Shown: one piece after another, positions 52,062 to 54,296 of the stretch
How positions within the stretch are numbered: position 1 is the stretch's first letter
How the letters are laid out: each line of letters begins with the position of its first letter
Source: Schmidtea polychroa
Taxonomy: Eukaryota
Direction of reading: 5' to 3'
NCBI GenBank assembly: GCA_044892525.1
Contig: CM097886.1
Location: 115,320,001 to 115,384,000 of the forward strand
DNA length: 64,000 bases
The notes under the pieces: generated by a model
What the model saw: the letters and a program-made list of their open reading frames with translations, nothing else
The model's database searches: none
What the model was told of the DNA's origin: nothing
Made by a program: the position numbers and the translations under genes

Positions 52062-54296
52062 GGAATTTGTCTGTCTCAATATTCCCATCATTACTAACAA
52101 CATCATCATCCAACTGGTAAATCCACCTGTTCCCCGTGGATTACTCGAAATGTTTTCCGTTAGTATTTCCTCATTTAACTCGTATTTTCCTTTTGTCTCT
52201 TTTATCTCCCAAAACTTGTGTTCGGTCATCCATGTTCCGAAATTCACTTCTATAATATTAGTCAACCTATCTAAGGCTGCTTGAATTCCTGACTGATCAT
52301 CTTTAAGTATCATTAAGGCATTTTTAAACATTAAGGTTAAAATCGTTATCATTTTCCCTTTCGTCATTCCTTCATTTAGGAATTGTTCTGCCACTTCGAA
52401 CATTTCTTGTTCCGTGGTATTTCCTGGGATCTTTCCCATTGTTTTCTTTATCTTTTCAGTGATTTTCTCAACGTTTATATCTTTATCTTTCTTGATTTGC
52501 CATTCAGGCTTAATCAATCGTAATATCTGATTTAATTTCCTCCATGTTTCTGTTTTACTACTGGCGTCTCCAACGCTTTTATCTATTTGGCTAGCTATTC
52601 CTGCTAATGCCTGTCTAGTAACATTTTGCATAGTTACTGGCCTTAGGAGTTCTCTTGGAGGCGGGTTCATTTGACTCTTTCTCGGTCTCCCTCTCCTCTC
52701 CTTCTTTCTCCTATTTTCGACCAACTTCGGGCCCACCCTATCCCTTGGTGGCTCCAATAATTGCGAGGTACTTGCTCCAATGTTTATCTCATTCTGGTTT
52801 AGTTGTATGATTTTATCTTCTTCTGGTGGAAATATCTCGATCAACTCATCCTCTGTGTTATCGAGTTCCTTTAAATATCTATCTATCTCTTCATCGAGAT
52901 CTACAGTCTTTGCTGGCTCTAGATGAGTATTATCATCTACTTGTTTCTGCTCGAGAGGAACTGTCTCCTCCTCAATTTCTGCATTATCCGGCAATCTCAA
53001 AGTTGCCCACTGATCCTTTGGAAACTCTATAAACAATATCATTACTATTGTTTCCTCTTGGGGAAAACATCCCACATCTACTAGAAATTCGTCGTCATCC
53101 ACCTGACAACCATGTATCATTATAAGGAATGATTCTTTTACTATTTCTGATATCCTTTTTCTCAGTTTCTTTACTCTATGATAACATGAGAATTGTTGTA
53201 TCAGGTGTCCTCTCCTGGGTATCCTGATATCTAACATCACTGGACCTTGTCTACCTTCCGATTGTCTGATAGCATGTCCATTTTTAATCAACAGCATCTT
53301 CGCTTGTGTCTGAAATTGTGATGTCTCTTTTACTAAAGGCACCACCAATGGCATTATCTCTCTAAGAGTATCTACTGGGATTCGCAACTCCAGTATCCAA
53401 TCCATTATCATCTTAATGGCCTCCCCATCTCTTGGGTTTTTCATCAGCTCGATTCCCAATCTATGTGGTACGGCTGATATTTGATTTAATTGATCAATTT
53501 CAATCTCGCTTATTGTAAGGACATTATCCAAGTCCACTACTGTAACAGTTTCCTTGTGAAACTTTGCTTTTATCACCATATTTTTCCCTGGTAGTATACC
53601 ACAATCTAACAGGGTTTCTCCCTCTAATAATCTTTCTCCCAATAAATATAGTTTGCATCTCAATTGAGGTTTTACCACAGAAACTCTCTTTGCCAATGCT
53701 TCTACTTTTTCACTTGGGTTAATTGTATATCTACGAAAACAACCCTTTGGGAAAGATACAAAAATTGTAGAATCTTCCAGATTCTCTCTTTGTTTCCAAT
53801 TTAGGCCAATATTTCTCAGAATTTCTCTCAATTCTGGATGATATTCCTCATTTCGGTCTAACTCTGATATGATATCCATTACTTTGTCAACCTCATTCTC
53901 ATTAACGGGGTTTAAACGAATATTTTCTAATTTCTGTCTCATTTCCCTTTGCCATACGCTCTTGCGTAATAATACTTTTCTACAGTCATCGATGGGATTT
54001 CTTTCCTCTTTTGATGCTTCTCTAACCTTTATTGGTTCATTACCACACTCACCTCGCATGGATGATGTGGCTATAAGAACTTCCGGCTCACTGACCGAAG
54101 CCCATCTTTTTTCCAAAACTTCTGTTGGAACAATTTCATTAGCTACTGGATCCATGTCCATAGCATTACGATTTTTAACTGGTGAAACCGGTAAACCTTC
54201 TATTTCTCTGTTGGCTTCTGGCTCCATGGCCACAGCCACTAGATTTTTCCTGGGTGAAACCTGTAAACCCTCACAGACCTCTGGTTCCATGACCAT
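50727..54296 (-). CDS. Accessory polyprotein: 2 UBL domains, AT-hook, Bcl-2-like domain, signal/TM, env ectodomain
   Basis: 1189 aa. UBL1 53562-53768, UBL2 53028-53243, RRGRPRK 52677-52706, BH3/BH1/BH2-like 52197-52631, hydrophobic segment 52062-52124. Confidence 0.85.
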   Translation of the reverse strand: MVMEPEVCEGLQVSPRKNLVAVAMEPEANREIEGLPVSPVKNRNAMDMDPVANEIVPTEVLEKRWASVSEPEVLIATSSMRGECGNEPIKVREASKEERNPIDDCRKVLLRKSVWQREMRQKLENIRLNPVNENEVDKVMDIISELDRNEEYHPELREILRNIGLNWKQRENLEDSTIFVSFPKGCFRRYTINPSEKVEALAKRVSVVKPQLRCKLYLLGERLLEGETLLDCGILPGKNMVIKAKFHKETVTVVDLDNVLTISEIEIDQLNQISAVPHRLGIELMKNPRDGEAIKMIMDWILELRIPVDTLREIMPLVVPLVKETSQFQTQAKMLLIKNGHAIRQSEGRQGPVMLDIRIPRRGHLIQQFSCYHRVKKLRKRISEIVKESFLIMIHGCQVDDDEFLVDVGCFPQEETIVMILFIEFPKDQWATLRLPDNAEIEEETVPLEQKQVDDNTHLEPAKTVDLDEEIDRYLKELDNTEDELIEIFPPEEDKIIQLNQNEINIGASTSQLLEPPRDRVGPKLVENRRKKERRGRPRKSQMNPPPRELLRPVTMQNVTRQALAGIASQIDKSVGDASSKTETWRKLNQILRLIKPEWQIKKDKDINVEKITEKIKKTMGKIPGNTTEQEMFEVAEQFLNEGMTKGKMITILTLMFKNALMILKDDQSGIQAALDRLTNIIEVNFGTWMTEHKFWEIKETKGKYELNEEILTENISSNPRGTGGFTSWMMMLLVMMGILRQTNSLTAYDCSEPILSRIYSLVDTVECKEAYPDKVAKREDVEFYVYQQTEFYRTRIRECRIQRATFEYYCGSNSYSAFLGAKLIPVPLIIPPEDCINAFRSKTVKIDDEVTITAEEGKILGITITRGEPIADDGSCQGRKKLRGSNVVSYVVTVEDYTVELIEYKGTFEVSTGKMMSHPECNAKFGYCKTSLAVLTYQSMRDFCDLGYLKKVVFSRLDGKSFMSQDTKQSGWGDKMAHKTKKEEVPEKNTAVVLVSKDPTDAIQLVRKKQTTKCGVLTFETNYKGIYLAHKYVPAAESLHLSDIKITKYINNKIDFLYHDLQKQLLDVYQEVILNDCRLNREIIRNRLAISIANLDLVMPMLTEEGTFGRILGEAIYSYQCKAVEVEVTRYDQCTVELPVRYKGKLRFMMPVSHQLLKEDTSPLKTVCNPAMSPLYKINNIWISLPDR

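Follow-up and report, generated by a model that had tools for sequence, protein, structure and literature searches.

Large DNA viruses are known to encode Bcl-2 mimics. The locus analysed here raises the question whether a retrotransposon carries one too, and whether a single hydrophobic segment anchors this domain to the membrane and, at the same time, targets the envelope protein (Env) encoded behind it. A Bcl-2-like domain and this dual use had been proposed in an initial annotation of the window (the whole 64,000-nucleotide stretch of Schmidtea polychroa DNA), which read BH3-, BH1- and BH2-like motifs ahead of Env.

The element and its polyprotein

The window holds a Burro-like Ty3/gypsy LTR element of ~15 kb (~41626-56792, Table 1) with a Bcl-2-fold domain mid-way in a Gag-Ubl-Bcl2-Env-Pol protein. 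The Ty3/gypsy layout is present (LTRs, Gag and the order PR-RT-RH-IN, with an in-frame Env that separates Gag from Pol), and the Ubl and BCL2-like domains both precede Env. That other copies use a single frame is established: intact copies encode one protein of ~3,500 aa, with open frames of 3,513-3,516 aa around at least 11 genome matches among the 150 matches listed, and two other copies have an open frame that leads from Gag through Env to protease and another that starts in RT, crosses integrase and reaches the second membrane protein. Env of the window copy is interrupted by an in-frame stop (50727-50729) that is flanked by PF24664 matches (E 2.6e-48 and 1.2e-21). Because other copies have one open frame, we rejected a family-wide programmed readthrough at 50727. 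The AT-hook-like motif gave a weak PF02178 match (E 0.7, in family D), and PDB sequence searches with both downstream ORFs gave no match. The element is covered by contigs from two runs, one possibly RNA and one untyped, and these contain no usable splice-like joint; among the sequencing runs listed, none given as RNA holds the element.

The initial annotation had also pointed to a left copy of the domain at 27928-28362. The start was correct, and the copy extends to its TNS ending at 28497, with 2 of 570 nt differing from the right copy. However, it is part of an inverted duplication (99.6%) in which the host flank and the identical insertion junction are copied as well; it is therefore not independent, and we rejected it as a replicate. 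Its Env is shortened by a deletion near 28927.

Table 1. Features of the element and its left copy. Residues are counted from the first codon of the ORF at 50727-54335 (- strand); numbers in the initial annotation were 13 lower.
Feature	Nucleotides	Residues	Strand	Remark
5' LTR (TGTTA...TAACA), then TGG-starting PBS-like site	55752..56792		-	
Gag with CCHC knuckles	54390..55676		-	separate frame in window copy; in frame with Bcl-2/Env/Pol elsewhere
Ubiquitin-like domain, upstream of Bcl-2 domain	53541..53795		-	PF00240 E 0.0044, below cut-off
Likely second ubiquitin-like domain	53001-53225		-	by eye only; no ubiquitin match
RRGRPRK, AT-hook-like basic motif	52677..52697		-	shared with sister families C, D and Burro-like element
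Extra N-terminal helix with LAGIASQID, not the fold's BH3 helix	52581..52634		-	model residues 9-26, pLDDT<50
LAGIASQID	52607-52581	577-585	-	
Bcl-2-fold core	52200..52565	591-712	-	AF2, VIA-align, family profile
alpha1		591-608		
BH3-position helix		623-635		
alpha4		642-655		
FEVAEQFL	52400-52377	646-653	-	
alpha5 (BH1; TKGK at NWGR place)		659-677		
alpha6/7, then BH2		681-705		within core
FGTWMTEHKFWE	52241-52206	699-710	-	
Polar linker, BH2 to hydrophobic segment	52128..52199		-	
Single hydrophobic segment, likely Env internal signal peptide	52062..52127		-	predicted cut after TNS
WMMMLL	from 52112	from 742	-	
LTAYDC	52061-52044	759-764	-	
gB/chuvirus-type (class III) Env ectodomain and C-terminal transmembrane helix	50373..52061		-	PF24664, hydrophobicity
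Protease, reverse transcriptase, RNase H, integrase	46269..49682		-	downstream of Env anchor
Second membrane protein, own internal signal (46060-46116), C-terminal TM	45142..46374		-	behind integrase, in frame, elsewhere
Accessory ORF	43477..44958		-	no significant family match
3' LTR, purine-rich tract before it	41626..42627		-	far end reaching N
Left copy of Bcl-2 domain and signal	27928..28497		+	inside inverted duplication of same insertion

Burro/GYPSM1 are giant planarian Ty3/gypsy elements (Arkhipova and Yushenova 2019, PMC6431247, citing Grohme 2018 and Jurka 2007). A retrotransposon with a Bcl-2 mimic is unusual, yet a BCL2-like motif adjoining Env has already been published for Burro; the account given there (section 7) leaves the hydrophobic segment, the topology and the fold unmentioned. 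Like the window element, Burro is described as encoding one polyprotein with Gag-CCHC, Ubl/SUMO-like and BCL2-like parts, then an in-frame Env, protease and RT-RH-IN, but it reaches 30 kb and ~4,900 aa (PMC6431247). Strict Burro elements, of over 30 kb, carry MATH, BIR and ankyrin cargo, whereas the window element matches none of these families. The Bcl-2/signal/Env junction recurs in a Burro-like element of the same genome that does carry such cargo (L122, L123, L134). Gene order, gB-type Env and length are also those described for GAG-ENV-POL HSV/gB-type errantiviruses of Platyhelminthes (Chary and Hayashi, PMC13524379), among which the Env fragment of Smed_errantivirus_4 looked closest of six to the window Env (judged by eye, not computed). 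The string 'Bcl' has no occurrence in the main text and seven supplements of that study.

A diverged Bcl-2 fold

Structure prediction together with profile homology establishes the fold: as modelled, the window element contains a real, diverged Bcl-2 domain. AlphaFold2 (AF2), supplied with an alignment of 29 element-only rows, gave a mean pLDDT of 75.5 and a pTM of 0.72 (pLDDT 71-94 over model residues 31-150), with confidence in one of five models only (53-58 in the remaining models). When this model was compared with 48,161 chains using VIA-align, ranks 1-32 were all Bcl-2 folds (best match Z 12.4, rmsd 3.1, 125 residues aligned), and the first unrelated chain had Z 5.3. The confident core and this ranking bear out the fold that had been proposed from motifs. 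Foldseek named Bcl-2-family proteins in 39 of the 40 rows listed, but with E-values all at least 0.074; against viral models it returned none at E<=0.001, with Bcl-2-like proteins at ranks 1, 2, 5 and 6. An earlier AF2 run with 21 close relatives only was unusable (pLDDT 43; Foldseek led by Bax/Mcl-1/BOK at E>=0.2).

PF00452 (Bcl-2) was matched by 19 of the 29 relatives at E<=0.1 (best 4.3e-7), with scores below the curated cut-off in four relatives scored singly. Subfamily B, which is 85% identical to the window sequence, matched at E 0.0094; the window's own domain had no PF00452 match, nor a significant Bcl-2 match among PDB sequences (BOK E 2.2). The family profile matched Bcl-xL at E 8e-7 and retrieved 100 sequences from the PDB at E<=0.01 (all of the 60 listed are Bcl-xL or Bcl-2 constructs), and hhalign gave 96.3%. 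The window domain shares an alpha1-alpha8 bundle, the placement of BH1 and BH2 and a C-terminal hydrophobic segment with Bcl-xL, Mcl-1, BOK, CNP058, M11 and A179L. It has only 8-15% identity to cellular and DNA-virus Bcl-2 proteins and differs from them by the replaced NWGR, an extra N-terminal helix and the apparent absence of alpha3, the model having a single helix where Bcl-2 has alpha2 and alpha3. Furthermore, it sits within a polyprotein, whereas those proteins end with their hydrophobic segment; for the window segment, co-translational insertion followed by cleavage would be expected.

Every motif quoted in the initial annotation can be found on the minus strand; they share one frame and follow the order given there, and profile and structure comparisons identify the BH1- and BH2-like segments as homologous to Bcl-2 proteins and correctly placed. 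The BH3 assignment did not hold. LAGIASQID lies ~75 residues before the BH1 glycine, against ~43 from BH3 in Bcl-xL and Bak, and has no BH3 Asp. We rejected it as BH3, given its position on a helix ahead of alpha1 with low pLDDT and outside model residues 29-156, the stretch aligned to Bcl-2 structures. A loose BH3 pattern also arises by chance: 55% of shuffled versions of the element's 4,019 residues contain one or more, against 4.7% for the 190-aa region. The strict pattern with Asp has 0 matches. The alpha2 position reads EKITEKIKKTM, that is, the canonical BH3 motif (Leu...Gly-Asp) is missing there.

The NWGR signature, TKGK in the window, is lost clade-wide: across the 29 rows, Trp is found in none, Gly in 10 (all from the window's group) and Arg in three, and the Gly position is Asp or Glu in 16. 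In the window's group, Gly is retained together with a basic residue, as in BOK's WGK. The exchange G145A is reported to inactivate Bcl-2 (PMC5841437), and Gly and Arg are of importance for BH3 binding (PMC9027176). A complex prediction of the core with a 36-residue BH3-position stretch of L059 scored 0.02, but its partner folded poorly and the prediction made no use of the alignment.

A tree of 16 element domains (16 of the 29 alignment rows kept) and seven non-element Bcl-2 domains placed the element domains on one side at 71/81 only, where long branches meet; it revealed no donor and tied them to no host subfamily. One sequence in this tree, L073, is multi-copy and probably stems from another mobile element, not the host. 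Searches of a set of 5.8 billion proteins gave no match at E<=0.001, which is weak evidence as these searches were length-limited.

Purifying selection on the region, in line with the initial reading, is likewise established. pN/pS was 0.22 (0.13-0.35) in the Bcl-2 core and 0 in the signal, where 22 of 22 residues are identical to subfamily B alongside four silent changes. The acidic linker upstream has a pN/pS of 0.21, so the core is not more constrained, and Env is more constrained than the core (0.08-0.11).

The junction between Bcl-2 and Env

The anatomy of the junction is established clade-wide. All 13 family representatives have one short hydrophobic segment, and no more, between Bcl-2 and Env, followed after 5-8 residues of polar c-region by a signal-peptidase-type site with a small -1 residue (S/A/G/C) and S/T/C/N at -3, so that the segment and site annotated at TNS|LTA recur in every representative examined. 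Families E and F had been found via Env and the Burro-like family via BIR, none of them via Bcl-2. The n-region is basic in most representatives, with 0-1 basic residues in A/B/C; these features were scored by our own script, not SignalP. The junction is stop-free in 45 of the 50 A/B/C loci examined, and the distance from BH2 to the cleavage site is 49 aa in the window and 42-70 aa across families. On the Kyte-Doolittle scale the segment has a 12-residue core of 2.36 and a 19-residue maximum of only 1.46, shorter and weaker than the true TMs of the element (2.26 and 3.01). No hydrophobic segment was found in the ~1,190 residues ahead of the junction, and the proposed cytosolic position of the Bcl-2 domain is supported.

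One segment with such a site in all 13 representatives argues that it is likely the internal signal peptide of Env. A second internal signal of similar kind follows integrase; such signals are therefore generic in this element and need no Bcl-2-specific reason. Since Bcl-2 and Env lie mid-way in one Gag-Env-Pol polyprotein, the same segment would also tether Gag. In Flaviviridae, too, the capsid or core is described as a cytosolic protein that stays on the ER owing to the internal signal of the downstream glycoprotein (PMC7601889), but in the window element the membrane-adjacent block is a Bcl-2 fold. Our literature search turned up no statement that a Bcl-2 anchor doubles as Env signal; Grohme et al. 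2018, which may detail the BCL2-like motif, lay outside the literature covered.

Possible roles at the ER

We see roughly even chances that the element's Bcl-2 fold is tethered to the ER via Env's internal signal and thereby dampens host cell death. About 1,190 cytosolic residues would be made first; very probably, the segment would then engage the translocon, signal peptidase would cut at TNS|LTA and Env would enter the lumen. The cut would leave Gag...Bcl-2 on the membrane, as with the Flaviviridae capsid anchor, and the element's protease would later free the Bcl-2 part from Gag at a putative site. The chances that the stub would last long enough to serve as tail anchor are about even. At just under even chances, the domain would shield the producing cell from death triggered by ER stress or defence, probably by other means than the canonical NWGR groove; IP3 receptors are reported as a possible target of ER-restricted Bcl-2 (PMC2172311). 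Should the junction function in this way, a 22-residue segment would target Env, tether Gag and put a death regulator at the ER, and cell survival would be tied to particle assembly in an animal dependent on stem cells and cell turnover. As NWGR is lost clade-wide, these domains are natural test cases for groove-independent Bcl-2 functions, and the isolated domain is small and assay-friendly.

An unlikely alternative that deserves weight is a transient, capsid-type anchor, with the stub removed by signal peptide peptidase or the element's protease and the domain then soluble or re-targeted. Hepacivirus (HCV) and pestivirus core proteins are described as losing their stub to signal peptide peptidase (PMC7601889), and the h-region here is short, with Gly, Ser and Thr. 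The variable BH2-to-cleavage spacing and the likeness to the signal behind integrase, which must leave the membrane, point the same way. However, a pN/pS of 0.07 between subfamilies A and B shows constraint on the linker. Moreover, the 42 aa from BH2 to the end in family E resemble the spacing of a cellular tail anchor.

Somewhat less likely again, the fold could be kept for a job outside apoptosis, as a signalling scaffold like poxvirus A52/N1 or as a matrix-like protein that joins Gag and the budding membrane. That NWGR is lost clade-wide, with an acidic residue at the Gly position in most rows, is consistent with this, as are the short alpha2-alpha4 region, the 1:1 production with Gag and Env from one frame, and neighbouring Ubl, MATH/TRAF and ankyrin domains in relatives. 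Yet pro-survival proteins lead the structural matches (Z 11-12), with A52/N1 far down (Z 5.5-5.9), a ranking that partly reflects size; the window's group retains its BOK-like Gly and basic residue, and Burro-like elements carry BIR as well. An extension of the tethering model, improbable as it stands, would have the captured fold, wired to the Env signal across the clade and made 1:1 with Gag and Env, line the inside of the budding membrane, travel to the next cell in the particle and block death there upon entry via a non-NWGR surface, as a packaged capsid-anchor death blocker.

It is very improbable that the signal stays uncleaved and Bcl-2 remains fused to Env as a cytosolic N-terminal tail: some gB-type errantivirus ectodomains are predicted to lie between two TMs (PMC13524379) and our cleavage call is script-based, but the -1/-3 residues and polar c-region are conserved throughout and the 19-residue hydrophobicity is weak. 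Least probable is a Bax/Bok-like pore former or dominant-negative aiding particle exit from the ER or cell, suggested by BOK as sole Bcl-2-family match of the bare sequence and top of the close-relative profile (E 0.37-2.2) and by the dominant-negative action reported for groove-dead Bcl-2 (PMC5841437), since these matches are not significant, the tree links the element domains to no host subfamily, and a living cell benefits an element that persists by integration.

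The element and its copies

The Bcl-2-like domain lies in an LTR element on the minus strand. Pfam ordered its parts as Gag with CCHC knuckles, a Monjiviricetes-type fusion glycoprotein, protease, RT, RNase H and integrase; PF24664 matched both sides of the in-frame stop (E 2.6e-48 and 1.2e-21). In the 781 Mb genome, which has four large contigs, the domain has 152 matches, in groups near 98%, 84% and 43% identity (families A, to which the window belongs, B and C). Among the 150 matches listed, 11 are contained in open frames of 3,513-3,516 aa. Two such copies are open from Gag via Env into protease, and from RT via integrase into a second membrane protein; the window copy is therefore a broken version of a one-polyprotein element. 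A further copy, on the plus strand, sits within a 99.6%-identity inverted duplication that includes host flank and an identical insertion junction, and the two copies of the finding differ at 2 of 570 nt. That is, one insertion is present twice, or the assembly duplicated it. The duplication has N stretches at its centre; it may be genuinely palindromic, or assembly may have created it.

Features of the element and its surroundings (nucleotide positions in the window; aa counted from the first codon of the ORF 50727-54335)
Feature	Position	Strand	Remark
LTRs	about 55752-56792 and 41626-42627	minus	element roughly 15 kb
AT-hook-like RGRP(R)K	52677-52697	minus	also at loci L081-L090 and L134
Extra low-confidence helix before alpha1	aa 577-585	minus	LAGIASQID; predicted model
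alpha1	aa 591-608	minus	ETWRKLNQILRLI; structural alignment of model
BH3-position helix	aa 623-635	minus	EKITEKIKKTM; structural alignment of model
Bcl-2-like core	52200-52565	minus	
Hydrophobic segment	52062-52127	minus	
Env ectodomain	50373-52061	minus	also at loci L113 and L115
In-frame stop	50727-50729	minus	
Second type I membrane protein	45142-46374	minus	
Accessory ORF	43477-44958; 2356-2985	minus; plus	
334-aa ORF	39836-40840	minus	between the two copies
Intronless NPL4 gene	10147-12009	plus	PF05021, E 3e-90
Inverted duplication (~43 kb)	18692-38286 and 41626-61883		element and host flank

Bcl-2 homology, helix register and constraint

Every motif from which the initial annotation had read a Bcl-2-like domain was found at its place. 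The bare sequence of the window domain gave no PF00452 match in Pfam, its one Bcl-2-family match in the PDB was BOK (E 2.2), and homology is unproven by this sequence alone. We gathered sister families from the same genome via PF00452 (D), the Env family (E and F; G with an F query) and BIR (a Burro-like element), and all carry a homologous domain directly before Env. Among 29 dereplicated rows drawn from 86 junctions, 19 matched PF00452 at E<=0.1 (best E 4.3e-7); subfamily B reached E 0.0094. With the family profile, 100 PDB sequences were matched at E<=0.01 (best 8e-7), the best 60 of the 100 all being Bcl-xL or Bcl-2 constructs; other Bcl-2 genes of the same genome were matched at 96.3%, over BH1-BH2 only. 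Apart from the gypsy elements, the genome has multiple copies of short Bcl-2 genes that stand alone, some of which seem to contain a small intron (L066-L080, at many genome sites).

AlphaFold2, given the 29 element-only rows, was confident in one of five models (pLDDT 75.5, pTM 0.72, core 71-94). Bcl-2 folds filled VIA-align ranks 1-32 (best Z 12.4, rmsd 3.1, 125 residues; first unrelated Z 5.3), although helical bundles may reach such Z through arrangement alone. We accept the fold despite this caveat because the Z gap and the independent sequence evidence concur. In Foldseek, 39 of 40 rows named Bcl-2-family proteins, none of the 40 at E<=0.001. The fold proposed earlier is supported.

Its register had to be corrected. 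Structural alignments begin at model residue 29-33 and span their targets from the first helix, which therefore sets alpha1 and the BH3-position helix. LAGIASQID, previously taken as BH3-like, was rejected: it precedes alpha1 and the fold, lacks the BH3 Asp, and loose BH3 patterns are frequent by chance. A comparable helix lies ahead of the core in families C, D, F and G, where it might conceivably act as a ligand tethered to the groove. One groove wall looks reduced in the model, since a single helix separates alpha1 and alpha4 (DSSP on the prediction). At the NWGR position, Trp is kept in 0 of 29 rows, Gly in 10 and Arg in 3; 16 rows have Asp or Glu in place of the Gly. BH3 binding is described as depending on the NWGR Gly and Arg, with viral proteins variable there (PMC9027176), and Bcl-2 G145A as losing Bax binding and protection (PMC5841437). 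Given the NWGR loss and absent BH3, the domain is therefore a Bcl-2-fold member that fails the tests of a canonical pro-survival protein.

Between the window and one B copy, pN/pS was 0.22 for the core (bootstrap 0.13-0.35), 0.21 for the upstream acidic linker, 0.08-0.11 for Env, 0.07 for the linker, 0.06 for the AT-hook-like motif plus extra helix, and 0 for the signal (22/22 residues identical, 4 silent changes). Against family C, where silent sites are saturated, identity was 38% in the core, 68% in the signal and 62-64% in Env. By these comparisons the region is under constraint, and the foreseen objection that it might be unconstrained across copies therefore falls; the core, however, is under no tighter constraint than an in-frame stretch presumed to be a spacer. 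Families A-D and the Burro-like element all have the AT-hook-like motif immediately ahead of the Bcl-2 domain; between A and B it is strongly constrained.

The Env junction

Using our own script, we surveyed 13 family representatives (about five independent lineages). From BH2 to the point where Env starts, xx[AV][YF]DC, all 13 have exactly one hydrophobic segment. Each also has a putative cleavage site at which the -1 residue is small and the -3 residue is S/T/C/N, with a gap of 5-8 residues from the hydrophobic core to the site. The junction is stop-free in 45 of the 50 A/B/C loci fetched, and intact copies contain nothing hydrophobic upstream of it over about 1,190 residues. These features are consistent with a cleaved internal signal; the whole upstream part, including Gag, would then remain at the ER on its cytosolic side.

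In the scheme we propose, the segment would insert co-translationally, signal peptidase would cut at TNS|LTA and Env would become luminal; the Gag-to-Bcl-2 precursor would stay ER-tethered until cut by the element's protease, and the Bcl-2 fragment would damp death at the ER. We give this whole chain an even chance; fold, frame, anatomy and constraint are its demonstrated parts. The initial annotation had the segment serve as tail anchor and Env signal. The lone segment with its signal-peptidase-type site supports the signal. Three points speak against a lasting tail anchor, which is about as likely as not: 19-residue hydrophobicity is low (1.46, while the element's true TMs reach 2.26 and 3.01), an equivalent signal is located after integrase, and the cores of hepaciviruses and pestiviruses, left anchored in a like manner, are reported to be trimmed by signal peptide peptidase (PMC7601889). 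Release of the Bcl-2 domain by SPP or protease is the foremost competitor, though a minority prospect. Somewhat less probable is a Bcl-2 fold serving as a non-apoptotic scaffold or matrix; the two can be combined. An uncleaved anchor, with a cleavage-type site in every representative, is improbable, and a pore-forming domain marginally more so.

The Env ectodomain has 13-14 cysteines in three copies and, over about 540 residues in each, no N-glycosylation sequon, so glycosylation is unable to report Env topology; a sequon-free ectodomain is unusual for a viral fusion protein. At L093, a family D copy, the Bcl-2 linker continues not into Env but into an unrelated stretch whose hydrophobic segment is another one, probably a deletion or recombinant.

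Related elements and neighbouring features

Cargo and layout were already known, and likeness to published elements suggests that the host is a planarian. Arkhipova and Yushenova 2019 (PMC6431247), crediting the BCL2-like motif to Grohme et al. 2018, give the Burro polyprotein as Gag-CCHC, a Ubi2/SUMO-like part, this motif and then an Env that precedes protease. In Schmidtea mediterranea, Chary and Hayashi (PMC13524379) list six GAG-ENV-POL gB-type elements of roughly 15-18 kb; number 4 looks closest to ours by eye, and 'Bcl' is absent from the main text and seven supplements. What we add is fold support, the corrected register, the clade-wide junction and the NWGR loss: the finding is real, its first interpretation partly right. 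No paper stating dual use of the segment as anchor and Env signal was found in the literature searched.

BURRO1 is reported to be expressed upon SMEDWI-2 loss (PMC8532177); the sequencing runs searched gave no RNA evidence for the window's family. In the Burro-like element of the present genome (L119-L123, L134), the polyprotein contains MATH and integrase is followed by ankyrin repeats; the element also has a TRAF-zinc-finger/MATH ORF and a 392-aa BIR ORF, the latter with at least 150 matches. The second membrane protein, in the window element as at loci L114 and L116, has an internal signal of its own and comes after integrase, with which it shares a frame in intact copies. By eye, its stretch GLLPNTSYLLEIKT resembles fibronectin type III; Pfam and PDB gave no match. 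The accessory ORF, split in the window, measures about 775 aa at L114. By eye, its middle resembles a DEDDh exonuclease that apparently lacks the first acidic motif; neither Pfam nor the PDB gave a match. The 334-aa ORF, for which Pfam gave no match, recalls by eye a fragment of a protein-primed family B DNA polymerase (GDTDS motif).
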